From the NCBI GenBank assembly GCA_040754455.1, contig JBFMCP010000006.1, forward strand, positions 1 through 64,000: DNA of 64,000 nt, read 5' to 3'. Within the stretch, counting starts at the first letter, position 1. Every line of letters starts with the position of its first letter. A program made the position numbers and the translations under genes. Below the pieces are notes generated by a model that did no database searches, was not told where the DNA came from, and saw only the letters and a program-made list of their open reading frames with translations. Origin of the DNA: Nitrospirota bacterium (lineage in GTDB: Bacteria > Nitrospirota > Thermodesulfovibrionia > Thermodesulfovibrionales > Dissulfurispiraceae). Positions 7,322-59,667 of this stretch are shown here, piece after piece.

Positions 7322-7768
7322 TCAAAAAAGAGACGATGCGATTTTAGCTGCTCTCCTGAGAGCACACACATATCCTGCACTGTAAAACGGTTCTCTTGCG
7401 AAGGTGTCTGCTGCAGCGCTTTTAAGCGCTTCTTCACTTGTTTCCGCTTCCTCCAGGAACTCGCACTTATGCTCTTCAATCCACAAGGCACTCTTTCCCG
7501 CCGCTTCGGGCTCAGTGGTCATGCGCACTATTCCTGCAGCCTCTTCAAGCCCCTTTATATATCCAGCATTGAACTCTGCAGGGAGTGGCGGTTCTATGTT
7601 TTCGCAGCTGCGTATGACCTTCAGGAGTTCCTCTTCATTGTGCCATCCGCACGCCCTCATGTAATCCATCTTCGCGCCGAGTGCCTCCATAGTCTCTTTG
7701 ATATAGCGTTCGATCCGCTTTTCGATCTCTTTCGCCGCGTCCCTTATGGATGCTATGTCTTCTCCCAT
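7322..7768 (-). CDS. Hypothetical helical protein
   Basis: ORF with AAGGAG RBS. Confidence 0.6.
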   Translation of the reverse strand: MGEDIASIRDAAKEIEKRIERYIKETMEALGAKMDYMRACGWHNEEELLKVIRSCENIEPPLPAEFNAGYIKGLEEAAGIVRMTTEPEAAGKSALWIEEHKCEFLEEAETSEEALKSAAADTFAREPFYSAGYVCALRRAAKIASSLF

Positions 7769-12917: not shown

Positions 12918-12964
12918 AAGAGCCGGGAAGCGGACTCGAACCGCCGACCTGCTGATTACGAATC
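12918..12964. repeat. att site (distal copy of the tRNA-Thr 3' half)
   Basis: AAGAGCCGGGAAGCGGACTCGAACCGCCGACCTGCTGATTACGAATC, identical to 25361-25407. Confidence 0.97.
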
Positions 12965-13104
12965 GCTTAAAACTACCTCCGCAAGACCTTGAAAAACCCC
13001 ACAAACCCGCATAAATACTAGCTTTGCAGGCTTTTTACATCTTTTCGATATTCATCAAAATGCACGAATATTCATGCAAATTTATCACAAATTTAGCACA
13101 GTGA

Positions 13105-13210
13105 TTACATGAAGGCTTTTCTTCTTTTAAAAGCCTTCACGTCGCTTGCAGACAATTCGAACCATTCCCCGTTTTTTCGTCTGTCTGCAAATCGACCATG
13201 CCAGTCGAAA
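13105..13210 (-). pseudogene. C-terminal fragment of a GIY-YIG/T5orf172-like protein
   Basis: [18 protein letters not shown] motif without the N-terminal part. Confidence 0.5.
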
Positions 13211-13295
13211 GGCAAAAAATAAAGGAAACAGATCACATACGCCATCTCAGGTTTCTTGGTACGATCAACGGCATTAAATACATAGGAGGCATTAT

Positions 13296-13424
13296 ATGAC
13301 GAGGCAGGAAGCAAAAGAAAAAGCAGCAGAGGTGATCGTTAGAATGGTTGCGGAGATCGAGACTAACGGTTGTCACTCGATCAAAGAGAGCGAATTACGG
13401 GAGATTGCCGACGCCCTGAAGTAG
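13296..13424 (+). CDS. 42-aa hypothetical protein (not in ORF track)
   Basis: [51 protein letters not shown]; hairpin downstream. Confidence 0.6.
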
Positions 13425-13594
13425 CAGCGAACCCAGAGCCCCAAAGACGACAAAGAGCCCCGATCCGTTGCCGGAAAAGGGCTCTTTGCTTTGACAGGAG
13501 GTACTTATGGATATCTCTTGTAATAGCATCATCGAGACATAATTTTTTCTACTCGGCGCTATTTTCATATGTATCAACTTTTAGGAGGATACTT

Positions 13595-15007
13595 ATGGAA
13601 AAGAAGCGTTTCACCGAAGAAGAAAAAGCACAAGCAAGGGCAATCGATTTACCAGCTTACCTTGAGAGCAAAGGCATCAAAATTAAACTACGGGCACCGA
13701 TTCAATCACCGTTCCGCGTGGACCGACGACCATCCTTCAGTATCTACCAGCACAAAAAAAACGGTGACTGGGTAGGCTACGACTATTCACAGCAGAAGAC
13801 TTACGACGCAATCGCCATCGTCAGCGGGTTTACCAAGTTAGACTTTGTCGCGAGCGTCAAAGATATGCTCAACTACATCAACAGCCCTCAGCAACAGACA
13901 CAGGCGACGACCACGACCAACAACAGGGCGCAGAAAGAAGATACCAAATACAACGACGACGGCTTACCAATTGAGCGCACAACCAGCCGAGGCAACACCT
14001 TTACCTATAACTGGATCGACTCCGGCGACGAGTACGCGAGAGGAAAGGCGCTTGACCATTTCGTTGAAGACCGAAAGCTTCCTGCCGGAGCCCTGAACTT
14101 CCTTCTCAATGAAATGGGCTGCAGACTTGTCGAGATAAAAAACCAGGGTAACAGCTATGACCCCCGGTTATTCCTTGGTATAAAAAACGTCAATGGCGGC
14201 TGGGCGTTCAAGAGCCTCGATAAGTACGGATTCGATCAAAGCATACCGCCAACCGGCGCGAGCATTGCAAAGCTCAAAGGGGATGAAGTGCCAACCCTCG
14301 ACAGCAAACACGCCAATGTCGTCATCGTAGAGTCTTTAGCCAATGCCGGAGCATGGCGCTACGCACTCGATGAAGATGTGTATTTTACCGATACCCGCAG
14401 CGGCGATACGTATCTGATATCACTCAACAGCGCAAACAATGCCAAGGATGTCGAGGGGATTCTCAACGACCTGAAGGCTAAAGGTTACGAGAGTATCAGG
14501 GTCGCCAGCCATACAGATTATGATCCAACAGGGGAAGACGCCAATACAAAAATCGTGGGAATGGTAGAAGCGCTCCAAGCGCAGGGCATCAATATCGAGA
14601 TCGATCAAAGAGAGCGTAAAGCTATCGGGTGCGCTCTCGCCAACACAGAGAAACAAATCAATACCCTCTTAGCTCTCCAAGAGTATGACACCAAGGTCGA
14701 GAAGATCAAGGATTTAAAAGGGCAGATGTTTATTGAATCGGAGATTAGGCGGCAGATATGGGACATAAAAAACTACATCCCCTCTGATTCTGACAGCGCC
14801 GAGGAACAGGCAAGGGGAATACATCTTGCACTCAATTTCGACGAGGCATACAGCGCGAAGCGCGAAGAGCTGTACCCGCGAAAGCCTCTCGCTCTACCGA
14901 CTAGCGACTCCATGGCCGACATCATCGACGCGCCCCCGGCCAAGAGCCTACAGAGGGCGCAGGAAGGAAAAGCTAATACCGAAACATCCTGGAGACCGTT
15001 CCCCTAG
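13595..15007 (+). CDS. DNA primase (degenerate Cys-free CHC2-like domain plus TOPRIM)
   Basis: SPFRVDRRPSF...W..YD...DAI N-domain; VVIVES and DYD TOPRIM acidic motifs; AGGAGG RBS. Confidence 0.75.
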   Translation: MEKKRFTEEEKAQARAIDLPAYLESKGIKIKLRAPIQSPFRVDRRPSFSIYQHKKNGDWVGYDYSQQKTYDAIAIVSGFTKLDFVASVKDMLNYINSPQQQTQATTTTNNRAQKEDTKYNDDGLPIERTTSRGNTFTYNWIDSGDEYARGKALDHFVEDRKLPAGALNFLLNEMGCRLVEIKNQGNSYDPRLFLGIKNVNGGWAFKSLDKYGFDQSIPPTGASIAKLKGDEVPTLDSKHANVVIVESLANAGAWRYALDEDVYFTDTRSGDTYLISLNSANNAKDVEGILNDLKAKGYESIRVASHTDYDPTGEDANTKIVGMVEALQAQGINIEIDQRERKAIGCALANTEKQINTLLALQEYDTKVEKIKDLKGQMFIESEIRRQIWDIKNYIPSDSDSAEEQARGIHLALNFDEAYSAKREELYPRKPLALPTSDSMADIIDAPPAKSLQRAQEGKANTETSWRPFP

Positions 15008-15183
15008 AGAAGCCCCTTTAAATCGCCTTAGATTCGCTCAGAGCCCCGGTGATGTTCCGGGGCTTTTTATTTTTCATTTCCCGGACAATGTCCACCGTAT
15101 ACGCATATTATTTTGACCTCATTGCTATTACTTATAGGTGAGACGGTCAAAGACTGTCTACACCAAAGTAATGGAGGATTCAA

Positions 15184-15318
15184 ATGGAAAAGAAGGCAAT
15201 CAAACTGACTGTACGGGTAACGGCAGATGATTACAAAAAGCTACTCCAGAAGGCAGAGCAACAGGGTATCGGCGTAGCCACTGTTATACGTATGGCAGTG
15301 CGTCAGGAGGTGAAGTAA
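15184..15318 (+). CDS. 44-aa CopG-like ribbon-helix-helix protein (not in ORF track)
   Basis: GGAGG RBS; MEKKAIKLTVRVTADDYKKLLQKAEQQGIGVATVIRMAVRQEVK*; TAATG coupling to the next gene. Confidence 0.75.
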   Translation: MEKKAIKLTVRVTADDYKKLLQKAEQQGIGVATVIRMAVRQEVK

Positions 15319-15518
15319 TGTCCAGAGAAATCGCAAACGAAAAAAACGGCGAAAACATCGCTGCGAAGATCAACGGCGAATTCTACCCCGCAGGTAATTT
15401 TACGTCAGTGGAAGTAACTGACGGCGGGGTCTTTAGATTTAAAAAGGAAGAGGGCGAGATTTATGTAACCGGTAATATCTCCGTTACCGTGTGGGCTAAG
15501 AACGCCTCAAGGAGGTAA
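15318..15518 (+). CDS. Hypothetical 66-aa protein
   Basis: Translationally coupled; AGGAGG RBS. Confidence 0.65.
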   Translation: MSREIANEKNGENIAAKINGEFYPAGNFTSVEVTDGGVFRFKKEEGEIYVTGNISVTVWAKNASRR

Positions 15519-15521
15519 TCC

Positions 15522-17021
15522 ATGACCACAAAAAAAACGCCCCCGGCCAGCACCGGAGGCAATGGAAACGGAACCATGTCTACTGAAGATAATAGCGTAG
15601 CCACCGAACTTCCTTACGTTCTTTTTCCAGGGACGGCGGGGGCACCTCTGGAGCCAGGGCGGACAGGGAAAAAGAAAAACGAGCACCTAGAACACGCACG
15701 CGCTGAACTCAGCGCCGGACGTTGCGGAGCAGTACGTATGTATTACGATTTGAAGGCAGGGAGTTACTTTTTGATCAACTCCCAGGACGAAATAATATTC
15801 CTGAAGGAAACCGGGGCTAAAAAAACTATCTATGATGCTTTTGGAGTGAGTGGCAAAGAGGCGCAAGCGCTCATGCTCGACGTAATGAAAGTCTATCGCG
15901 TCTTTGATCCGGCAGCGCCGGAGATCGAATACGGCAGTGAAGGTGAAGCGCCGACGCTGAACATGTTTAAACCTTCTCGATACATGGAAATTGCCGACAA
16001 AACCATGAAGGATGAACGCATAACCGAATTAGACTGGGATAAGTACCCATCGGTGCGCTTGCTCCTTAGCAACGTCTTCGGTGATGATGAGGCGGGAGTC
16101 ATGTATTTCGTGAATTGGTTAAGCACGATCATCAACACTCGCCGCAAAACCAAGACAGCCATAGTATTGAAGGGTAGCCAAGGCGCAGGGAAAGGCGTAC
16201 TATTCGATCACGTTATCTCAAAGGCTATCGGAGAGAAATATTGCGCGATCGTCTCTAATGAAGAACTGAGAAGTGACTTTAACGATATCTTGGATAACCG
16301 GCTTTGCGTCGCATTCAACGAAATTCGGGCTGATCTACACGAACGTAATACTGTTTATGAGCGCTTGAAAGCTTATGTTACCGATGACAAAATTATTATC
16401 AATGGTAAATATCGGGCAGCGGTGCAGCAGCCGCAATTCTTCAACTGTGTCGTTTTTTCTAACCATGAAATTCCTTTACAGATTGAATGGTCAGACAGGA
16501 GATACAGTGTCTTCGAAACATCGCTATACAAGTTGCCGGAAGTAGTTAATCGAGAGTACGGCGACGATGTCACTATGTCGGAATTTATAGGGAGGATTTT
16601 GCCGCCAGAGGTAGACGAATTTCTCTCCGATGTTGCACGTTTCCGCTATGACATTACAACAGCAATGACCGCGAGAGCATCGGCGGCCAAGAAGAGAATA
16701 CAGGAATCAACAACGACCGCAATTATTAAACTTATCTCTCACATGAGGGAGAAAAACGTCGAATGGCTGGAGTCAGAGTTAGCGCCGCTGGCCGAAGCAA
16801 AGCAAGCGGCGGGGAGCCTTGTTGAATGGCAACGCTTGGAAGATTTCTTAAAAGAGGTCCAGGAGAACAAGTACACTCAGGAAACCTTAAAATGGTTGTA
16901 CCTCATTTACATTGGTCCTGAACAAAGTGAACGTAAAATATGGCAGACCTGGACGACACATATCAGCCATACTTACGTCAGCAACAGTACCCGGTACAGA
17001 TCGTTCGAACGTACTAAATAG
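15522..17021 (+). CDS. SF3-type (DUF5906/primase-helicase family) replication helicase
   Basis: Walker A GSQGAGKG, Walker B-like VAFNE, motif C FSN, DRR arginine finger. Confidence 0.85.
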   Translation: MTTKKTPPASTGGNGNGTMSTEDNSVATELPYVLFPGTAGAPLEPGRTGKKKNEHLEHARAELSAGRCGAVRMYYDLKAGSYFLINSQDEIIFLKETGAKKTIYDAFGVSGKEAQALMLDVMKVYRVFDPAAPEIEYGSEGEAPTLNMFKPSRYMEIADKTMKDERITELDWDKYPSVRLLLSNVFGDDEAGVMYFVNWLSTIINTRRKTKTAIVLKGSQGAGKGVLFDHVISKAIGEKYCAIVSNEELRSDFNDILDNRLCVAFNEIRADLHERNTVYERLKAYVTDDKIIINGKYRAAVQQPQFFNCVVFSNHEIPLQIEWSDRRYSVFETSLYKLPEVVNREYGDDVTMSEFIGRILPPEVDEFLSDVARFRYDITTAMTARASAAKKRIQESTTTAIIKLISHMREKNVEWLESELAPLAEAKQAAGSLVEWQRLEDFLKEVQENKYTQETLKWLYLIYIGPEQSERKIWQTWTTHISHTYVSNSTRYRSFERTK

Positions 17022-17239
17022 TACCCTTCAGTACACGGCAGTACAGAAGTACACTATTTTTCGGAAAAAACTCTTTTCCGGCGTTTTCTCCTGCTCTGGG
17101 TGGCGGCGTGGTTCTACACTTTTTTTCTTATATTTTACTGTACTTCTGTACTGAAAGAGAGATAAGGGTATGATATTGTTGTACTTTTGGGCAGTACACT
17201 TCTCAGTACAGATGGAGTACACTTGTACTTGTTCTGTAC
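16987..17239. repeat. GTAC iteron array, putative replication origin
   Basis: 15 GTAC cores in about 250 bp, flanking a T-rich tract right after the helicase gene. Confidence 0.7.
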
Positions 17240-17479
17240 TGTTCTGTGTGCTTTTCCCTGATGCTGAAAGACGGGCATAGTAGAAAAAAGGTAGTTAAGG
17301 ACAACAACAACTCCCTGCCCAAGCCGCCGAGACGATCCCCAGCCGCCCGCCCAGGATGACGGCCAGCGGGCCGAGGTACCCCAGGAACCCGGAAAACGCA
17401 AAAATGACGGAAAAGAGCCTTGCCCCCTGTCGAGAAGTTGACACGCAAAAACCGGGGGTTGAGCGTCAATTCCTTGAGT

Positions 17480-17516
17480 AACCCCCCCTCTGGAAAATTT
17501 TTCCAGAGGGGGGGTT
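17480..17516. repeat. 37-bp perfect palindrome
   Basis: AACCCCCCCTCTGGAAAA-T-TTTTCCAGAGGGGGGGTT. Confidence 0.9.
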
Positions 17517-17738
17517 TGTAAAGACTATCTACTGATTACACTTATCAATTAACTTGACCTTGCGCCCGGTCTTCCGGCCCGCCTGCCTTGCTCTTTCTCA
17601 TATAAGAAAGAAAACTTCCATTTTGCGTTATATACGGTGGACGCCGACGCCGTTTCGATCCCTTGATATTCTCTTTCTGAGCCCCCTTTCCCTCTCCTTG
17701 CTATTACTTCCTATATCAATTTCGACAGGAGGAAACAC

Positions 17739-18164
17739 ATGAATAACGACGACTCTCTCAAGGACATCATCGACGCGAAGCCGATCAAGTTAACACCCCA
17801 GGCGCAGCCAGCGCCGGGAGATGATACCATCGAAGCCGACAATATCACTATGACGTACACGTTGACGCGCAAAGACCTTGAGGCGCACATGCGGAAATTG
17901 TACGAGATGACTAGCGCAGATAAATTCGATACGGCTGTGAGCTTGGCTTGGTATAAATTTGACCCCACGAAAGATCGTGACACAGCGAATATGATGAGCC
18001 TTTTGACTGTCCTAGCAAGGTGTGAGCAGGACGGGGCAATTAAGCCCCCGGTTTCGTTGTCAGAGATGTACGCAGTAGCAGCCGGGAAGATCAACCCCGG
18101 CCAGGGGAAGCAGTTCCCCGGCGCGGGAGGCGGGCCGACGATGATAAGCGGAGTCCGAGGATAG
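17739..18164 (+). CDS. Hypothetical protein
   Basis: AGGAGG RBS; terminator follows. Confidence 0.7.
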   Translation: MNNDDSLKDIIDAKPIKLTPQAQPAPGDDTIEADNITMTYTLTRKDLEAHMRKLYEMTSADKFDTAVSLAWYKFDPTKDRDTANMMSLLTVLARCEQDGAIKPPVSLSEMYAVAAGKINPGQGKQFPGAGGGPTMISGVRG

Positions 18165-18183
18165 AAGGAAAGAAAAGAGAGAG

Positions 18184-18209
18184 AGCCCGGTAGAGATACC
18201 GGGCTTTTT
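18184..18209 (+). terminator. Intrinsic terminator between convergent genes
   Basis: AGCCCGGTA...TACCGGGCT followed by a T run. Confidence 0.75.
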
Positions 18210-18211
18210 TA

Positions 18212-19042
18212 TTACCGAAGGAGCAGGCGGGCAGTAGCAACCAGAGTAAGACCAAGACAAATCGCAAAAAGTACGGCCATCAACAAAAGGAAAGCCCGGT
18301 CTGTAAGCTTGTATTTCTCGCGATGCTCTCGGAAACGAGCTTGCAGGGCGTTGTATTGCGCCAAGAGACTATCATACTTTTCTCCTGAAGCCCTTTTTTC
18401 ATTCAGGGCTTTTTCCGCCTCTTTTAGCGACTCCCTCAGCGTATCACGCTCATTTGTCAGAGCGCTCACCTTATCGCACATGTCGCAACTGACCGGAGCC
18501 GTTGTGGACACCGAAGCAGCAGCCTTTAAATCCTCTATCTGACCTTGCAGCTCAGCGATATTGAGCAGCGTTCTGGATAGCTCTGCTTTCGTATCGCATC
18601 TCTCGCAATCGGCAGAGACATGGATAGTCTCGCGCTCTTCCTGGAGTTCTCTTTCAAGACCGGCGACTCTGGAGCAGGAGTCGCACGAAGGCACGTTGAT
18701 TACCTCATGAGATATGTCATCGATTTGTCTTTGCAGATTGTTGACATTCTGACAATTATTACAATTCCGCTCGACTTCCAGGGCGCGGAGCTGATCGAAG
18801 AGCCTTTCAATTTCCTCCTTATCTTCCTTTTTGGCATCTTCGAAACCGGCGTCAAAGCCCTCTGTATATTCCTTGCAATTATCGCAATCGGGAGCCTGTA
18901 TACAGGTCTCCCCTTCCTGCTTACAGGGGTGTAAACAGTCCAGGACTAAGCCCTTAACAAACTCGGAAATAGTTCCGTCAGCCCTTTCCTTTAATGCGTC
19001 AAAGTCCTCTTCTGAGATTCTAAAGCTTATCGGTTTACTCAT
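18212..19042 (-). CDS. RHH DNA-binding protein with five CxxC-punctuated coiled-coil segments and a C-terminal TM helix
   Basis: AGGAGG RBS at 19051-19056; KPISFRISEEDFDALK RHH; CDNC, CNNC, CDSC, CERC, CDMC; AFLLLMAVLFAICLGLTLVATA tail. Confidence 0.8.
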   Translation of the reverse strand: MSKPISFRISEEDFDALKERADGTISEFVKGLVLDCLHPCKQEGETCIQAPDCDNCKEYTEGFDAGFEDAKKEDKEEIERLFDQLRALEVERNCNNCQNVNNLQRQIDDISHEVINVPSCDSCSRVAGLERELQEERETIHVSADCERCDTKAELSRTLLNIAELQGQIEDLKAAASVSTTAPVSCDMCDKVSALTNERDTLRESLKEAEKALNEKRASGEKYDSLLAQYNALQARFREHREKYKLTDRAFLLLMAVLFAICLGLTLVATARLLLR

Positions 19043-19212
19043 TGTATACACCTCCTGTATACGGGAAATCATCTGTATACAGGTATCAATAGCCCTGTAT
19101 ACAGGAAAGCCCCTCAACCTGTATACAGCTTATGCCCTGTATACAAAAATCTGTATACAGTCCCCCTGAAGTGTATACAAACCCGTATACAACCCTAAAA
19201 AACCTGTATACA
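19043..19212. repeat. Array of ten (T)GTATAC(A) palindromes
   Basis: Copies start at 19043, 19056, 19074, 19096, 19120, 19138, 19152, 19172, 19184, 19205. Confidence 0.92.
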
Positions 19213-19269
19213 AGGGTTTAAACACCCCCTCCATACGCATATAAATTTGAGGTCAACGCTATTGTTATA

Positions 19270-19390
19270 AGAAGAAGCAAGCAGTAGATCGCGACGCCGC
19301 CCTTTCAGGGCAGCTTACGCGCTGCTTGCCCCTCTCGGATGAGAGGGGATACCCCGCCCCCGATGGGGGCACCCCGCACGCGGGGATAGG
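19270..19390. other. Putative oriT
   Basis: Nested inverted repeats (GCAAGCAG/CTGCTTGC, GCCCCC/GGGGGC, CCCCGC/GCGGGG) directly upstream of mobC. Confidence 0.55.
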
Positions 19391-19412
19391 AGAACGACCA
19401 GGAGGAACGGCA

Positions 19413-19706
19413 ATGAGAAAACGTTTAACAGTCCGAATCACTGAAGACGAGCACGCTACTATCCAGGATAAAGCCGCAATCGCCGGGCTCAGCATGTCGA
19501 AGTATCTCATAAAGGCAGGACTCTCGCGGCAGATCAAGCCGCCGTTACCGGAGGAGGTACGGAGGGCTATAGCAGGGTTCGGCAGGAACCTTAATCAGCT
19601 TGCCCATAAATGCAATATCAACGACGCAGCACCAGAGGCGGGCGAAGTAAGGGAATTAAGGGAAGACGTAAGGGAGCTTTTAGAGGCGATCGCGGACAGG
19701 GCTTAG
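19413..19706 (+). CDS. mobC: Relaxosome accessory protein MobC
   Basis: RHH N-terminus and GRNLNQLAH motif. Confidence 0.88.
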   Translation: MRKRLTVRITEDEHATIQDKAAIAGLSMSKYLIKAGLSRQIKPPLPEEVRRAIAGFGRNLNQLAHKCNINDAAPEAGEVRELREDVRELLEAIADRA

Positions 19707-19762
19707 GGGACTTTCTCATATAAGAAAGTTTTGACTGATTTTGCGTATTGAGAGGGGACAAA

Positions 19763-20971
19763 ATGGCAACGTCGAACATGCGTGGTATCTCAGCGGCCAA
19801 TGGTTTTGTCTCGTACTGTAAAGATAAAAAAGGCAAGACAGAGCGGGTGAAATATGAGTATTCAACCTTTACCAATCAAAGGGCAGAAATGAAACTAATG
19901 CGCGGCCGTAAATATAACGGGATCGATTTCCGTGTAAGCTTTGATCCTAACGACCGGAAATTAACAGAAGAAGAATTTAAAGCCATCGCCCAAGAGCTTG
20001 CAGAGCGGTATCTAGGAAGCCGCCCTTTTGTCGCAGTACTGCACAGTGAGACGGACCATGAGCATATACATTTTGTTAGCACATACTTAGATGAAAACGG
20101 AAAATGTATTTGCACCAAAGGACCCAAGGGCGACGAAGAGTGTAAGCGGCGGCAAGAAATAGTTGATAGGGTTTGCCGGAAATACAATCTTTCTACTCTG
20201 CCACGAAATGAAAACGGCTACAACAGTAAAGACGGTATCCCAGGTTATCAATACAAAAAAGAGCGGATCACCAAAGCTGAAAAGCAGGGCAAGCAGCCTG
20301 AAAAAGCTGCACTCCGCCGGTTGATTGATGGAGCGCTATCGATAGAGAGCTTAGAACCCTACATTGTACGCGAGAAGGAAAATTCGTTGACGTTTGAATA
20401 TAAGGGGAAGCGCTATCGCCTGGATAGCTTTGATAAGAGGCTCAAGAACCGGGCTGATTTAGAAAGCCGCATCAGAGAGCGCACTATGAAAAAACAATCG
20501 TCTAATGACCGTCTCCGGCGCTCAGAGCAGTTATTTTTAAATCGCCTCTCTAGGACCGTAGAGGCTCTCTCGTACAAAAAATACAACCGCAACGAAATAC
20601 AGGGCATAGCAGACAAAGTATTGCAGCACAGAGCCCAGGCAAACGACCCCAGCCAACGCTGGGAAGCACTTAAAAAAATGCGCTCAGAGCTCGACCAGAT
20701 TATGACTCGTGAGCAGCTACGCCAGATCAAAAACCAGATGTACCAAGAGAAGCACCAGCGGTATCAATCAAAAGTGCTCCGCCGGGTGCTCCGGGAGAGG
20801 AACCCGATTATTGCGTTTGTACTCTCGATAAACGTGATCCTCTCAGCACTTGCTGAAGCTATTAAAGACAGAAAACATGACAACAACGTCAAAGATATCA
20901 TCGATCATAAGGCAAACATCCAGAGCAGCAACATAGACCACAACACTCACAACAGCGGACCAAGAGTCTAA
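19763..20971 (+). CDS. HUH relaxase (MOB-P-like)
   Basis: N-terminal Tyr (FVSYC), VSF motif II, HSETDHEHIHFV 3H motif; follows mobC. Confidence 0.85.
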   Translation: MATSNMRGISAANGFVSYCKDKKGKTERVKYEYSTFTNQRAEMKLMRGRKYNGIDFRVSFDPNDRKLTEEEFKAIAQELAERYLGSRPFVAVLHSETDHEHIHFVSTYLDENGKCICTKGPKGDEECKRRQEIVDRVCRKYNLSTLPRNENGYNSKDGIPGYQYKKERITKAEKQGKQPEKAALRRLIDGALSIESLEPYIVREKENSLTFEYKGKRYRLDSFDKRLKNRADLESRIRERTMKKQSSNDRLRRSEQLFLNRLSRTVEALSYKKYNRNEIQGIADKVLQHRAQANDPSQRWEALKKMRSELDQIMTREQLRQIKNQMYQEKHQRYQSKVLRRVLRERNPIIAFVLSINVILSALAEAIKDRKHDNNVKDIIDHKANIQSSNIDHNTHNSGPRV

Positions 20972-21023
20972 ACGAGGACGGGAATAACCCCGCCTTTGCT
21001 ATTACTAATAGAGGAGGAATGAC

Positions 21024-22250
21024 ATGGATTTTGCGACACTCTATAACAATCTAGTCCAGAGTTTTTCCGGTATCCTCAATTCATGGGGAAACGAGATTAG
21101 CGCTGTAGCAATGGGGTTGGCTCTCGCATTTACGTTGATCCGCATCGCAAATGAGGGCTGGAAAGGCGGCTATGACAAAATAATGCCCTTCATTAAAGAT
21201 CAGGTAACGAAATTCTTTATTGTTTGTGCCCTTTGTATCCCCCTCGACGTTGGACCTTTGCAGGGTAGTTTCCTAGTCGCATTTCCACGGGTCGTTATGA
21301 CGGCCGGGTTTGAGACAGCGAAAACTATGGTACAGCATAGTGAAACGTGGCACTCAGAAACACTCGTCGCGCTGCCGAAAGGTTTAGACGAAAAAATCGA
21401 TAAAATCCGCGCAGCAAAAGACGCAGAGCTTATGAAACAGAGAGGCATTATGACAAGGCTCTTGAGAATGGTAAAAGAGGCGCTTGTTATCAGTTTCATG
21501 GACTTCTTTAATATGTTCGCACATCTCAGGACGCTTGCAGTCGTTGGTATCCTCGTAATCATGTTGCTACCCGTCTTCATAGGATTAATTATGTTAGGCG
21601 GCGAGGGAGGATGGATTGCAAGCGCAGTAATCCTTGCATACTTATTCATGAAAATTGGCGCTTGGGCGACAGGCACAGAGAGCCCACAGATCGATTTGAC
21701 TGTCCATGAGACAATGACCTGGGCGACTAATAAAATCGCTAATTTCGCCTTTATCGGGATTTCATCATTTACATTTTTCGGGGTGATGATAAGCGCGACT
21801 GTTCAGAGTGTAATTCACACGCTGTTATTCCCCTTTTCCGTAATGAATATGGCATTTGAGACGCGGCGGCAGATATTTATGAATCACATTGCAAAAATGT
21901 TTCAACTAGCTTTGACGCCAGTTATCGCTTGTCTCATCTTCATGGTTTCGGCAGAGAGTTTCGCGCTACTCTCTGCAAAAAGCGGGCTCATCGAGGTCAT
22001 GCGCAGCGTCTACGTCGGAGACATGCCAGCCACGGACGCCGACTTTTTTGTCGTCGTTGGTTGGTTTTTCCGGTTTTGTGTTGCTGCTTTGATATCGCCG
22101 ATGGTGCTTGCGATGCCAGTTGCGACGTTAATCAAACAGTCATCGAGATTCGCCGGGGAAGTCGTTGGACAAGGATTCGCGATGGTAAACAATTTCCAAC
22201 AATGGAGCAGTATTGGCAGTAATCCTATGCCAATGCCGGGCAAAAAATAA
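21024..22250 (+). CDS. Polytopic membrane protein, VirB6/TrbL-like
   Basis: Several TM helices with a central soluble loop; located after the relaxase; family is inferred. Confidence 0.55.
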   Translation: MDFATLYNNLVQSFSGILNSWGNEISAVAMGLALAFTLIRIANEGWKGGYDKIMPFIKDQVTKFFIVCALCIPLDVGPLQGSFLVAFPRVVMTAGFETAKTMVQHSETWHSETLVALPKGLDEKIDKIRAAKDAELMKQRGIMTRLLRMVKEALVISFMDFFNMFAHLRTLAVVGILVIMLLPVFIGLIMLGGEGGWIASAVILAYLFMKIGAWATGTESPQIDLTVHETMTWATNKIANFAFIGISSFTFFGVMISATVQSVIHTLLFPFSVMNMAFETRRQIFMNHIAKMFQLALTPVIACLIFMVSAESFALLSAKSGLIEVMRSVYVGDMPATDADFFVVVGWFFRFCVAALISPMVLAMPVATLIKQSSRFAGEVVGQGFAMVNNFQQWSSIGSNPMPMPGKK

Positions 22251-22263
22251 CCAAGGAGGAACT

Positions 22264-22437
22264 ATGGATATCAAAAAAATCAAAAAGACTCTCACGGTGA
22301 CAGAGAAAGACAAGCAGACGTTTATCACAGCAGCGCTCGACGAGAGCTTGTCAATCGGCAGACTCAGCGTAGCTATTTTTATCGCTGTAGTAGTAATGAG
22401 CGCGGCATTTAACATCGCCGCTGAGATTGCGAGGTAA
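22264..22437 (+). CDS. 57-aa protein with a hydrophobic C-terminal helix
   Basis: AGGAGG RBS. Confidence 0.6.
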   Translation: MDIKKIKKTLTVTEKDKQTFITAALDESLSIGRLSVAIFIAVVVMSAAFNIAAEIAR

Positions 22438-22441
22438 CGCC

Positions 22442-23437
22442 ATGAGACAACTAACACCACAGCAGTACGACACTCTCAAGGCTATGAGAGATGACCTCAA
22501 CGACTTTATAGCCGAGAGGGACGCGAAGCAAAAAGAGCGCTTTGCGGAGTCGGAAGAACTCTCAAAGACCCCGAAGTGGCGGGCATTCCGGGAGCGGCTT
22601 TTCGGCTATGCTAGAGAGTGTAGAGACGTATCAATATACAACTACACTGGTAAAGACGGGCAAAAAAGAGAAGTTGTCATGCATCCGTCGAAACTGCCTC
22701 TCATAACGCAGGTACAGCGCTACGTAGAGGACAAGTACCGGCGTTACGGGCTAGACGCGCTCTATCACGTCTATCAACGTCTAACAGAGCGGCACGGGGC
22801 TTTAGCGGTATTGCTCCCGGTAGTCCGGGATATCGCGGGGCTCGATCAAGACATTATCGATGAGCTTAGTAAAGAACGGCTTATCACAGTTGCCGGAAAT
22901 CGTATCTATCCTCAGTTGTGGTTTTTCGGGGTTGAAGCCCCAAAAGCCAAAGCTGCGCTCGCACAGATGTTCTCTACTGCGCCACAAAAGACTTTAGAAG
23001 ACATCAGAGAAATGCTTGTCTATGCTAAACATCTCATCTCCGTCGAACAGCAGACGTACAACGACTATAGAGAGGCACAGAGCACTATAGATGCATCGAG
23101 ATACAGAGCGCTTCTAGCCGCAGTTGAAAGTCTCCCTACGAAGACTGAGGAAGAGGCAAAAGAACTAGACAAATTCAAAACGGAGATCACCGCTGCACAG
23201 AGCGCCGGGCTTCTGTATTCATGGTTTATCGTCAAATCACAGGTCAATAAAGAGCTCGTATCAAGCGACATCAAGCGCATTGAAAATGCGATGTACCCGT
23301 CTTCAGGCGCTGATCGGCTCTCTACCGAGGACGAGCGCGTATTTTCGTATATTGTCTCAACGTATAAACCAGCTATTTCAGGCGACACAAACGCATTCAA
23401 AGTTTACGAATCATGGATGCGTGAGCTATCCATGTAA
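22442..23437 (+). CDS. Hypothetical helical protein
   Basis: GAGG RBS; operonic. Confidence 0.7.
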   Translation: MRQLTPQQYDTLKAMRDDLNDFIAERDAKQKERFAESEELSKTPKWRAFRERLFGYARECRDVSIYNYTGKDGQKREVVMHPSKLPLITQVQRYVEDKYRRYGLDALYHVYQRLTERHGALAVLLPVVRDIAGLDQDIIDELSKERLITVAGNRIYPQLWFFGVEAPKAKAALAQMFSTAPQKTLEDIREMLVYAKHLISVEQQTYNDYREAQSTIDASRYRALLAAVESLPTKTEEEAKELDKFKTEITAAQSAGLLYSWFIVKSQVNKELVSSDIKRIENAMYPSSGADRLSTEDERVFSYIVSTYKPAISGDTNAFKVYESWMRELSM

Positions 23438-23455
23438 CCCTTAAGAAAGGAGGTA

Positions 23456-23695
23456 ATGACTATGCAATCACTAATGCAGTTAGGTATGGGCGATCCCACA
23501 CCCCTTGTAAACATGACATCCGAAGCAACGGAGCTTTTCAACAAGCTCAGCGCCGGGGCTAACGAAGCTTCACAAATGGCCGACATCATCTCTGCCCCCA
23601 GCATACTTACAAAAGGCGCAGAGTTCGTCCAGGATCAAGGACAGCAGCAGGACGAGTACACAAGCCCGTCTTTAAGTCCAAGACCGGGCATGTAA
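23456..23695 (+). CDS. Small acidic hypothetical protein
   Basis: AAGGAGG RBS; terminator at 23713-23749. Confidence 0.65.
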   Translation: MTMQSLMQLGMGDPTPLVNMTSEATELFNKLSAGANEASQMADIISAPSILTKGAEFVQDQGQQQDEYTSPSLSPRPGM

Positions 23696-23847
23696 CACTT
23701 GATATCCACCGCGAGCCCTTCCCTGGCTTTGTCAGGGCGGGGCTTTTTTATTGTCAGCATGTAAACTTTCTTTTTTTGTATATGTTCGTAAAAATGCATC
23801 GTTCTGACGCTATTTCCATATACATCAACTTTTAGGAGGAGATGTAT

Positions 23848-24153
23848 ATGGAAAAGCTTTTGACAGCAGAAGAACTCTCGAAAATACTGAGAGTAGAAGT
23901 TCACACGATTCACGTATGGACGCACTCAAAACGTATACCTTATCTCAAAGCCGGACATCTACTTAGGTTTAGGTGGTCAGATATTGAGGCATGGATGCAG
24001 GGGAAAACGACGGCGAAGATCGCGGCGCAGTACAAAGAAGAGAAGCCCAAAGCAGAGACGAAGGTAAAGACCGGGAGAAGAAAAAAAAGTCATGGGCAAG
24101 GCTCGTATATCAAGGCAATCGTAAAAGGCACAATTGCCGAGGTTATCGGCTAA
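23848..24153 (+). CDS. xis: Excisionase-like HTH protein
   Basis: LLTAEELSKILRV...W....IPY.K.G..LRF pattern; adjacent to the integrase. Confidence 0.85.
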   Translation: MEKLLTAEELSKILRVEVHTIHVWTHSKRIPYLKAGHLLRFRWSDIEAWMQGKTTAKIAAQYKEEKPKAETKVKTGRRKKSHGQGSYIKAIVKGTIAEVIG

Positions 24154-24228
24154 TTGATATAATCTCCGCAAGTGTTCTTTGACAACGGGAATTTTCAAAG
24201 GTCTTGCGGAGTCCAAGAAGGAGAAACT

Positions 24229-25290
24229 ATGAGACAACGCAAGAAATACGACGGACTTTTTCTGAGAGGAAAAATCTGGTGGATGTCGTTCGTTATTAAT
24301 GGGAGACAGTACCGAGAGTCAACAGAAACGGAAGATAGGAAACTTGCCGAAATCGTCAGGGCAAAGGTGCTTGTCGAAATAGCAGAAAATCGCTGGTTTC
24401 CGCGCAAACAAGCGGAGAAAAAAGGCTGGTCTGATATCGTTATCTTGATGAACGATAACATGGAGCAGAGAGAGCCAAAGACACAGATATTTTATAAACA
24501 GCGCCTTGCTTATCTGGACAATTATTTTAAAGGTCACAAGCTCGCTCAAATTGATCGTACCGCTATCCAAGACTATCTTACACAGAGGCGGAGGGATGCA
24601 GCAGAAGATAAAAAACGCTGCTCCGGTACGACGCTCAACAGAGAGCTTGCTATCCTCTCCAAAATGTTCAACCTTGCGATAAAACAAGGATGGATCGATT
24701 CGAACCCCTGCTTTGGAATCGAGAGATATAAAGAGCCCAAAGACATAGGACAGCATCTCTCAGAAGAGGACGAGCCGAAGCTATTAGAGGCAGCTAAACC
24801 ATATCTCAACGGCGACCTTATAGATATGGTTATATTAGCCATATATACCGGCATCCGTAAAGGACAAGTAATATCGCTGCATTGGGATAAGATTGACCTC
24901 GACGGAAAACGCTTTGAGACGTACAACGAGAAAACCAATGAATGGTATGTGCTACCCATGGCAGAGATGGTATATCAAATGCTGCTACGGCGCTCAGAAA
25001 GCCGTAAGACAGGCTATGTCTTTCAGACAGCGGCTGGGACTCAATACGACGGTATGAATGTGCTTCACTGGTTTCAGAGAGCTTGCAAAGATGCCAAGTT
25101 GCCAAAAATGAGATTCCATGATCTCAGGCACACCACTGGAAGCAGGCTTGCGCGTCTCGGGTGTGATATCCATTTTATCTCCGGGGTACTCAATCATAGT
25201 CAACTTTCGACGACCCGGCGATATGCAAAACACAACGTCGCAAGTCTTCAAAAAGGGCTCGATTTACTCACTCAAAAACAGCCAAATTAG
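24229..25290 (+). CDS. int: Tyrosine integrase
   Basis: TGIR, RFHDLRH, LNH and RRYA catalytic residues. Confidence 0.95.
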   Translation: MRQRKKYDGLFLRGKIWWMSFVINGRQYRESTETEDRKLAEIVRAKVLVEIAENRWFPRKQAEKKGWSDIVILMNDNMEQREPKTQIFYKQRLAYLDNYFKGHKLAQIDRTAIQDYLTQRRRDAAEDKKRCSGTTLNRELAILSKMFNLAIKQGWIDSNPCFGIERYKEPKDIGQHLSEEDEPKLLEAAKPYLNGDLIDMVILAIYTGIRKGQVISLHWDKIDLDGKRFETYNEKTNEWYVLPMAEMVYQMLLRRSESRKTGYVFQTAAGTQYDGMNVLHWFQRACKDAKLPKMRFHDLRHTTGSRLARLGCDIHFISGVLNHSQLSTTRRYAKHNVASLQKGLDLLTQKQPN

Positions 25291-25363
25291 CACAAAATTA
25301 GCACAATTGACCCCAAAACAGAAAAAAGGGTTACAGTATTACCTGTAACCCTTTGATTTTAAG

Positions 25364-25436
25364 AGCCGGGAAGCGGACTCGAACCGCCGACCTGCTGATT
25401 ACGAATCAGCTGCTCTACCAACTGAGCTATCCCGGC
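25364..25436 (-). tRNA. tRNA-Thr(CGT), CCA not encoded
   Basis: Cloverleaf GCCGGGA...TCCCGGCT; anticodon arm GCTGA-TT-CGT-AA-TCAGC; GGTTCGA T loop. Confidence 0.97.
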
Positions 25437-59061: not shown

Positions 59062-59667
59062 CTACAGCAGCACCAGAAGGCTCATCATTGCAATCGACCA
59101 GATGATGTCCAGCGGCAGTTGGAGCTCGCAGGTCGAATCAAAGAGAATATCCACGCGCGGCGGGAATTCCTCATCGGCAAGCCATAGGATCACCGTCACC
59201 GGGACCCGGGGCACGGGAAAGAGCGTAAACGAGGCATCGCCATATCCTGCTTGTATGCCGTCGAAATGCGCCCCCTTCTTCAAAAAACCCTCGCGGTCGT
59301 TGCGGTACTTTTCCGCAACTTTGTCGAGCGGCAGCACATGTGACCCTCTGAAAAAAAGCTGCCCCCCCGTAAGGTTGACCGGCGCAACGAGCTTGCCTGA
59401 AAGGGCAATGTCCTTTGCGCTGACAAGATACCAGGGCACGGAGAGCCGGAAGAAATAGGCGAGGCGGTTCAGGAAGAGCGCACTGTCAGGTGCTTCACTC
59501 GTGATCTTTCCCTCCTTGGGTGAAATAAGGAAATCCTTGCCGCAGGAACGCAATGTATACATGCCTGAGGCTTTGTCAAAAGTGACCTGCGCGTTCCTGC
59601 AGACCTGATCGGGATCGAGACCGGAAAGTATTTCCCAGGCTTTATCTTCTCCGGGAGCAATCGACAT
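59062..59667 (-). CDS. DUF3786-like protein
   Basis: PRVPV...W.ADEEFP....LFD. Confidence 0.8.
   Translation of the reverse strand: MSIAPGEDKAWEILSGLDPDQVCRNAQVTFDKASGMYTLRSCGKDFLISPKEGKITSEAPDSALFLNRLAYFFRLSVPWYLVSAKDIALSGKLVAPVNLTGGQLFFRGSHVLPLDKVAEKYRNDREGFLKKGAHFDGIQAGYGDASFTLFPVPRVPVTVILWLADEEFPPRVDILFDSTCELQLPLDIIWSIAMMSLLVLL

Follow-up and report, generated by a model that had tools for sequence, protein, structure and literature searches.

The 12.5-kb integrative mobilizable element described here lies within the first 64,000 nucleotides of contig JBFMCP010000006.1 of a Nitrospirota bacterium (this whole 64-kb stretch is called the window) and encodes a 276-amino-acid (aa) protein, P0001. 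The protein combines a ribbon-helix-helix (RHH)-like N-terminus, five CxxC motifs in helical, heptad-rich sequence and one hydrophobic helix at the C-terminus, and its gene is headed by an array of short palindromes beside a putative origin of transfer (oriT). From sequence comparison we propose, with a probability of about 0.5, that P0001 is tail-anchored, regulates its own gene and attaches the oriT-proximal array to the inner membrane. Three candidates were considered as binders of the array, namely the RHH-like domain of P0001, a NikA-like protein encoded nearby and the replicase of the element, and P0001 is probably the one that binds it. The features that carry this reading are as follows.

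18212-19042, minus strand: P0001 gene (open reading frame and translation, 276 aa).
18932-19042, minus strand: codons 1-37, RHH-like DNA-binding domain with a strand at about residues 3-10 and helices at 11-20 and 25-37 (sub-threshold Pfam matches, AlphaFold2 model, invariant residues).
18293-18886, minus strand: codons 53-250, five CxxC motifs in helical sequence rich in heptads (AlphaFold2 model, heptad test, family motif).
18236-18292, minus strand: codons 251-269, C-terminal transmembrane helix, a predicted tail anchor (Kyte-Doolittle 2.83), followed by a 7-residue tail.
19043-19212: array of ten GTATAC-core sites, eight of them full TGTATACA, which aligns with the array of the related locus L001.
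18895-18939, minus strand: in-gene sites, with a perfect CCTGTATACAGG at 18895-18906 and decayed copies at 18916-18925 and 18930-18939.
18184-18205: hairpin terminator common to the P0001 gene and the convergent gene at 17739-18164 (9-bp stem with 6 GC pairs, T run).

GTATAC occurred 20 times in the window against 4.6 +/- 2.1 expected; ten of these copies fell within 19044-19211 and one at 18898. The full TGTATACA was found ten times against an expectation of 0.18, with eight copies in the array, one in the P0001 gene and one, unrelated, at 59554. The first-pass annotation, made from the letters of the DNA, had reported ten cores in the 170 bp upstream of the gene, two of them at the ribosome-binding site and start codon, and an eleventh palindrome inside the gene, and all of these were recovered. 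The two proximal cores were centred 4 and 17 bp 5' of the P0001 ATG, on either side of GGAGG, so placed that the palindromes abut the ATG. The in-gene CCTGTATACAGG spells codons C47-I48-Q49 of P0001, and the two decayed copies beside it, found in addition, have two mismatches each. The array consensus TGTATACAGG reads towards the gene, with GG mostly on the gene side; perfect TGTATACAGG 10-mers numbered five on the gene strand versus three on the other strand in the window, and seven versus none in L001. Centre-to-centre spacings in the window were irregular (12-24 bp) and never below 12 bp, and 12 bp was the smallest spacing in both arrays. The locus thus has the trait of a centromere-like or autoregulatory array, that is, one motif clustered at the 5' end of its own gene, above chance, and kept in L001. 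No sigma-70-like promoter was called for the P0001 gene in a promoter scan. If the array is transcribed, the 191-nt leader (19025-19215, minus strand) would fold to -70.4 kcal/mol (z = -5.8; none of 200 shuffled sequences matched this stability), because each core pairs with every other core, and the two proximal copies could hold GGAGG within a hairpin loop. Among the literature matches listed for TGTATACA, none concerned bacteria or plasmids.

A profile scan of genomes found one homologous locus, L001, in a Nitrospirae metagenome-assembled genome, where the protein P0002 is encoded. The same TGTATACAGG sites were present at the P0002 gene: 13 of the 14 GTATAC copies in 13 kb (1.45 expected) were located there, eight upstream and five within the gene just past the part that codes for the RHH domain. 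The two arrays align. Proximal sites lay at similar distances from the ATG, -17, -35, -57 and -81 in the window and -15, -37, -60 and -78 in L001. The sites nearest the gene extend over the ribosome-binding site and start codon in each locus. The true start of P0002 is the ATG at L001 position 6199, behind AGGAGG; the database open reading frame (ORF) is 66 residues too long (L001 5995-6198), as it includes the array, translated into V-Y and L-Y-T. P0001 and P0002 were about 30-33% identical overall, with 47% identity between the RHH parts, in which S6, R8 and S10 were invariant. Identities between the two elements were 71% for the helicase, 51% for the relaxase, 51% for NikA, 46% for a 408-aa protein and 37% for the integrase. 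P0001 and P0002 have the lowest identity in this set, so the most diverged protein keeps an unchanged 8-10 bp site.

The ORF, the positions of the motifs and the hydropathy profile of P0001 agree with its earlier description as a protein of 276 aa in which an RHH-like N-terminus precedes five CxxC motifs and one hydrophobic helix forms the C-terminus. The motifs are CDNC at residue 53, CNNC at 94, CDSC at 120, CERC at 146 and CDMC at 186, spaced 26-41 residues apart; the protein has 14 cysteines, 13 of which are cytoplasmic. In the AlphaFold2 monomer model (predicted local distance difference test, pLDDT, 59.6, a low confidence), an extended N-terminus is followed by helices at 11-20 and 25-37 and by long helices at 67-115, 121-140, 150-177, 186-219 and 224-275. 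A model of the N-terminal domain (pLDDT 67.4) was again extended over residues 1-10 with helices at 11-20 and 25-37, and this modelled order of strand, helix and helix would fit the RHH topology. The first-pass annotation had stated that each CxxC opens a heptad-rich segment. This was borne out for the motifs at 120, 146 and 186, which stand at or just before the start of a helix, and not for those at 94, which lies within a helix, and 53, which opens a helix of only 4 residues. Heptad contrast over residues 61-250 was 0.401, compared with 0.274 +/- 0.036 for shuffled sequences, a value reached in none of 300 shuffles. The most hydrophobic 19-residue window was 251-269, with 7 residues then to the end, and P0001 is therefore predicted to have the features of a tail-anchored protein, a lone hydrophobic helix at the extreme C-terminus and a short tail. 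Matches of P0001 to Pfam (18 at E <= 1), NCBIfam, PHROGs and PADLOC reached the coiled-coil level only. Profiles of SbcC-like and SMC-like coiled coils were matched weakly (phrog_77, E 2.9e-6; NF045487, E 3.2e-5), over helical, low-information sequence only. A role in defence was considered and rejected, as the PADLOC matches concerned only the coiled-coil arms of LmuB and JetC. No look-alikes of P0001 were found in the ESM Atlas at 0.9 or above.

An exhaustive HMMER search over 1.84 billion cluster representatives, which stand for about 15 billion proteins, gave nine matches besides the query. Eight were kept as relatives of P0001; the ninth, P0008, is an 805-aa protein with Cys repeats that matches only residues 60-104, and was rejected as unrelated. 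With the cluster mate P0011 the family set comprised ten proteins. Every cluster in the family has one or two members, and the family is unnamed and very rare. Word-indexed searches added no member: P0001 alone retrieved only itself, the family alignment, for which coiled-coil words filled the limit of 8000 candidates, retrieved four proteins, none of them new, and the conserved motif of P0003 retrieved five members, all already known. Likewise, tblastn of P0001, P0002, the helicase and the relaxase against a plasmid collection gave nothing. The family core in the alignment reads ETIKISADCxxC...ELxxxLLQIxDLxxEIEEL, or more generally ETI(K/H)(I/V)SADCxxC...LLxIxxL, followed by more CxxC motifs and KCDRL. 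The ten proteins have 5, 4, 1, 4, 4, 3, 3, 4, 3 and 3 CxxC motifs, all in helical sequence, and nine of the ten end in a hydrophobic helix with a tail of 2-7 residues. The exception, P0004, has a different C-terminal end and comes from a contig of 1.7 kb. The architecture claimed for P0001 alone thus recurs through the HMMER relatives, the alignment and the scan for motifs and hydropathy, and on this comparison the predicted combination of DNA-binding domain, CxxC coiled coil and membrane anchor is a conserved trait of the family and not a chance ORF. Odd CxxC counts are frequent, and Asp, Asn or Ser precedes each first Cys, which agrees better with metal sites that two parallel chains have in common than with sites formed inside a single one. 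We infer that two parallel chains are most likely clamped to each other at the CxxC pairs, through such shared metal sites.

The N-terminal domain differs within the family. Three proteins (P0001, P0002 and P0006) have RHH-type N-termini and seven have helix-turn-helix (HTH)-like ones. The RHH-type N-termini begin MSK(P/V)ISFR(I/V)SE and are 45-47% identical over about 38 residues; M1, S2, K3, I5, S6, F7, R8, S10 and E11 are invariant in all three. Their best Pfam match was in each case NikA-like PF21983 (E 0.047, 0.24 and 0.019). Among the HTH-like proteins, P0007 matched HTH_psq above the gathering score, and P0004 and P0005 matched HTH_28 below threshold. P0003, P0009 and P0010 had no HTH match at E <= 0.05 and were grouped by alignment, and P0011, which was outside the HTH scan, was placed by cluster membership. 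A segment of P0001 at about residues 53-80, CDNC...GFDAGFEDAKKED..EIE, is also found in HTH-type members and is missing from the other two RHH-type proteins; the family is therefore a mosaic. The exchange point of the N-terminal cassette lies just past the in-gene sites of P0001. These alignments point to cassette-swapping recombination of the predicted DNA-binding domain. A swapped N-terminal domain with the remainder kept is as expected for a targeting DNA-binding module. Peptides that would derive from the palindrome (CIQ, CIH, VY) were found in all three RHH-type proteins, 1, 5 and 2 times, and in none of the seven HTH-type proteins within the first 260 residues; the one VY in this group was at residue 264 of P0004. 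The two CIQ in P0006 are suggestive of a trace of the palindrome. These peptides bear on a possible co-variation of motif and domain at the protein level only.

Several results weigh against the proposed reading. The NikA-like scores of the three RHH-type N-termini were 14.3, 12.0 and 15.6 bits, below the curated cut-off of 27, and hhalign of the P0001 N-terminus with the element's own NikA gave a probability of 5.6%. Foldseek of the N-terminal model against the PDB returned nothing at E <= 0.001 (best E 4.6), a PDB sequence search with P0001 found no relative and nothing below E 0.45, and both AlphaFold2 models were of low confidence. A second RHH protein, the NikA-like one, is encoded about 200 bp past the far end of the array, with its start about 370 bp from the P0001 ATG, and could be what binds the sites. 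Spacing of the sites is irregular (12-34 bp), while repeats of the classical ParR centromere are regular. The comparison at the DNA level comprises two loci, the window and L001, which are both of RHH type and have the same motif. Finally, the family is so rare that it may be a lineage-specific oddity with a minor role.

The mechanism that we propose would work as follows. P0001 would insert through its C-terminal helix, leaving its entire N-terminal part in the cytoplasm. Dimers would form by way of the RHH domain together with a segmented coiled coil of parallel chains, which metal may clamp at each CxxC. The RHH dimers would occupy 11-13 TGTATACAGG sites around the 5' end of the gene; the 12-bp minimum spacing fits one RHH dimer per short palindrome, as in TraM of the F plasmid. 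Occupied sites flanking the Shine-Dalgarno sequence and start codon would keep synthesis of P0001 low. Many occupied sites, the CxxC stalk and the membrane helix together would hold the DNA at the inner face of the cytoplasmic membrane, and the stretch so held would lie about 60-200 bp from the putative oriT. As to the purpose of such a tether, we tentatively and slightly favour, by analogy with pSK1 Par and RocS, that it would keep the excised, self-replicating circle in both daughter cells without a nucleoside triphosphatase (NTPase). Next comes the still more tentative possibility that it would present oriT to the coupling protein of a helper, in the manner of F TraM. Excised elements of the SXT/R391 group replicate and are actively partitioned (PMC4489591).

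By these analogies the P0001 family would be a kind of NTPase-free DNA-binding coiled-coil tether that works most like pSK1 Par and RocS or like TraM. Like P0001, pSK1 Par, a staphylococcal system for plasmid partition, is the product of one gene that acts without an NTPase, and its DNA-binding domain stands at the N-terminus, ahead of a coiled coil. It reportedly binds repeats upstream of its own gene. Its C-terminal stretch is nearly identical to the amphipathic helix of RocS and MinD, and membrane binding has been suggested but not shown (PMC11500499). The DNA-binding domain of pSK1 Par is a MerR-type winged HTH and is combined with DUF536, whereas P0001 is RHH-like and has no MerR or DUF536 among its 18 Pfam matches at E <= 1. 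P0001 further differs in its predicted true transmembrane helix, its five CxxC motifs and its location in an integrative mobilizable element beside oriT, and the two have no sequence relationship. RocS of Streptococcus pneumoniae binds DNA with one domain, oligomerises by means of a parallel coiled coil and has a membrane anchor at its C-terminus, and it needs oligomerisation for membrane binding; the available part of the source makes no mention of a repeat array at its own gene (PMC11500499). In contrast to P0001, RocS is chromosomal, has a winged HTH, binds the membrane with an amphipathic instead of a transmembrane helix and is without Cys motifs. The C-terminal helix of P0001 (19 residues) is hydrophobic instead of amphipathic, which sets P0001 apart from the Par/RocS family.

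TraM of the F plasmid is autoregulated, and oriT, the TraM sites and the gene follow one another in this order. The N-terminal RHH domains of TraM form a dimer, each dimer takes up one short palindromic motif, and several such motifs lie 12 bp apart within oriT (PMC3159463). The same source describes a TraM-sbmA structure in which a spacing of 12 bp is used and one of 10 bp clashes, so that neighbours come no closer than about 11-12 bp, and a C-terminal oligomerisation domain that links DNA to the membrane machinery (PMC3159463). The P0001 locus mirrors the genetic layout of TraM, in which oriT is combined with multiple sites and an RHH protein. The link of TraM to the membrane is indirect and runs through the tail of the coupling protein TraD, whereas P0001 would anchor directly; TraM is a 127-aa tetramer without Cys motifs, whereas P0001 has 276 aa and five CxxC motifs. 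No match of P0001 to a TraM family was found in the Pfam, NCBIfam and PHROG tables.

ParR, ParG and omega coat repeat arrays at their own promoters and autoregulate, and their repeats are regularly spaced. In PMC3159463, ParR/parC of R1 and pSK41, ParG and omega are given as RHH proteins on repeat arrays at their own promoter. These proteins act together with a partner NTPase (ParM or ParA) and are without a membrane anchor. The first-pass annotation had noted that the element is without ParA, ParM or TubZ, and indeed none of these families had a match in Pfam or NCBIfam among the 10 element ORFs scanned (ORFs below 110 aa were outside the scan), which sets the element apart from type I, II and III partition systems. 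Protein p16.7 of phage phi29 is a membrane-anchored, coiled-coil, dimeric DNA-binding protein, with an N-terminal anchor and binding that is not sequence-specific. It helps to organise membrane-associated viral DNA replication (PMC11476376). It is a phage protein, unrelated to P0001 in sequence. In the zinc hook of Rad50 and SbcC, a coiled-coil CxxC shares zinc between two chains. That hook is a single CxxC at the apex of the antiparallel coiled coil of an ATPase, whereas P0001 has five CxxC motifs and no ATPase head. Judged by sequence, the P0001 family is analogous and not homologous to pSK1 Par, RocS and F TraM, and it is outside the Par/RocS, TraM, ParR, KfrA and Rad50-hook families, whose profiles are unmatched and whose defining features are missing. 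The earlier claim that no described protein has this architecture needs qualification, since RocS has the same domain logic, pSK1 Par the first two parts and F TraM the same layout. The claim held in so far as literature searches, with most subscription journals outside their coverage, found by titles and abstract starts no membrane-anchored RHH coiled-coil protein, and no work joining an integrative mobilizable element, partition, membrane, DNA-binding and coiled coil.

The integrative mobilizable element that carries P0001 has a replication module of its own. Its further features are as follows.

12918-25407: integrative mobilizable element, 12.5 kb, delimited at tRNA-Thr by 47-bp direct repeats of identical sequence (12918-12964 = 25361-25407).
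13370-15007: 545-aa DnaG-like primase candidate (weak matches to DnaG zinc ribbon, Toprim and phage primase families).
17022-17260: iteron region, candidate origin of vegetative replication (oriV), with 11 AGTACA and an AT-rich spacer directly after the helicase stop codon.
17739-18164: 141-aa protein with no assigned function, beside and convergent with P0001.
19262-19412: putative oriT region, with inverted repeats 19277-84/19322-29, 19329-36/19341-48 and 19318-38/19360-80, and blocks conserved with L001.
19413-19706, plus strand: NikA-like RHH relaxosome accessory gene (Pfam NikA-like, E 5.1e-20), divergent from P0001.
19748-20971, plus strand: MobA/VirD2-type relaxase (Pfam Relaxase, E 3.2e-16).
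21024-22250: 408-aa protein after the relaxase, with long hydrophobic stretches and no family.
22427-23437: 336-aa protein after the relaxase, with no family.
24172-25290: tyrosine integrase (family scans).

The 47-bp repeat overlaps the 3' part of the tRNA-Thr gene (25363-25436), and the G+C content of the element was 47.5%, compared with 50.7% and 52.6% for the flanks. The order of genes is primase candidate, DUF5906/P4-type helicase, 141-aa protein, P0001 on the opposite strand, array, inverted repeats, nikA, relaxase, 408-aa protein, 336-aa protein and integrase. P0001 thus sits between the replication module and the oriT/NikA/relaxase module, and the array borders the putative oriT, as first noticed, since the conserved inverted-repeat region adjoins it ahead of the NikA-like and relaxase genes. 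The 545-aa protein is probably a divergent primase that partners the DUF5906 helicase. The 408-aa and 336-aa proteins had no match in Pfam, NCBIfam (save one 15-bit noise match), PHROGs or PADLOC and may be mobilisation or membrane components. No match to coupling-protein families was found among the 10 scanned ORFs. Gene order is the same in L001 except for the homologue of the 141-aa protein (44% identical), which is elsewhere, near the integrase end (L001 1255-1617). The 336-aa protein is 29% identical to the product of L001 1618-2394, and the counterpart of the 408-aa protein is at L001 3138-4361. A near-perfect hairpin with a C/G run around AAAATTTTT was observed at 17473-17523 (25-nt arms, 88% complementary), and a similar one at about 7068-7115 of L001. 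The hairpin directly follows the P0002 gene in L001; in the window the 141-aa gene intervenes before P0001.

It is possible, though unlikely, that P0001 is a regulator only, a membrane-sequestered repressor or sensor for its own gene and perhaps for the divergent nikA-relaxase operon. Its Cys-rich stalk would then sense redox state or metal, or the protein would be released by proteolysis, and the placement of the DNA at the membrane would have no function. The overlap of sites with the ribosome-binding site and start codon, the position of the array between divergent genes and the 14 cysteines, 13 of them cytoplasmic, are consistent with such a regulator, and membrane-bound transcription factors such as ToxR and CadC are well known. 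However, 10-13 sites over 170-370 bp, some of them in coding sequence, are far above the usual simple operators, the 2-7 residues past the membrane helix leave no external sensor domain, and a defined sensing centre would hardly be expected to differ among members in its number of CxxC motifs (1 to 5).

Less probable still is that the array is an extended oriT for the NikA-like protein, the relaxase or a host factor, and that P0001 binds other DNA or none. The array does abut the conserved inverted-repeat region ahead of nikA, NikA is a confident RHH protein (E 5.1e-20) and its strand residues are also conserved between both elements. Binding by P0001 accounts better for the distribution of the sites, which hug the P0001 start codon and extend into and past the RHH-coding part, on the side opposite nikA, and for the GTATAC-derived peptides, which go with RHH-type N-termini (3/3) and not with HTH-type ones (0/7 in the first 260 residues). 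The inverted repeats closer to nikA are better candidates for NikA or relaxase sites.

Replication offers a third explanation, in which the array is an origin whose iterons are bound by the primase-helicase, on the model of P4-type replicons. The helicase belongs to the P4/D5 type (DUF5906, E 2.1e-19; TIGR01613, E 9e-8), it is 71% identical between two elements with the same motif, and the P4 alpha protein binds octamer arrays. We consider this very improbable, since both elements have separate iterons and a conserved AT-rich spacer after the helicase stop codon. In the window these comprise 11 AGTACA in 261 bp (42 per kb versus 0.22 elsewhere), and in L001 12 AGCACA in 321 bp (7440-7760, minus strand); GTATAC occurs in neither iteron region. 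The iteron copies stand in matching alignment columns, so the unit has undergone a concerted T-to-C change, the behaviour expected of initiator sites, whereas the two elements do not differ in the TGTATACA core. A moderately AT-rich stretch adjoins the array in the window and is missing from L001. The presence of a separate iteron region beside the helicase gene argues that the array is not oriV. Searches of phages with the helicase by tblastn gave at best 26-29% identity (NrS-1 26%, phiA008 29%), too distant to inform on the array. The weakest explanation, that the palindromes work as structure in the mRNA leader or the transferred strand, hiding the ribosome-binding site or priming the complementary strand, is hardly credible: the two proximal copies flank GGAGG and the leader would fold far better than its shuffles, but strong folding follows trivially from ten self-complementary 8-mers, only one copy lies beside the ribosome-binding site in L001, the exact 8-10 bp sequence is kept beyond what pairing alone would need, which argues for sequence-specific recognition, and no promoter was located to show that the array is transcribed.

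If P0001 is the proposed tether, four of its features would be new: a true transmembrane tail anchor, here predicted, attached to a mobile-element protein that binds DNA with an RHH-like or HTH domain; a coiled coil punctuated by CxxC motifs; a cassette for DNA binding with its presumed sites on either side; and a natural swap of RHH and HTH domains. We tentatively put forward the family as a novel one-protein DNA-membrane tether, with a metal-stapled, tail-anchored stalk and an exchangeable RHH/HTH cassette flanked by its own sites, which would, without an NTPase, place the excised, replicating element at the inner membrane and in this way serve inheritance, hand-over to a helper's transfer machine or both.

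How small mobile elements without a partition NTPase persist in dividing cells is poorly understood, as is the delivery of oriT to the membrane pore of a helper by mobilizable elements without a coupling protein. The known one-protein systems, pSK1 Par, RocS and RacA, are mechanistically unclear. The extreme rarity of the P0001 family limits its impact. It could extend what CxxC metal sites are used for in bacterial coiled coils, and it has a predicted true membrane helix, a conspicuous array of easily mutated sites and a natural RHH/HTH swap as assets of a model. If the reading is true, an unrelated family with the same domain logic would provide an independent simple model of DNA-to-membrane tethering.

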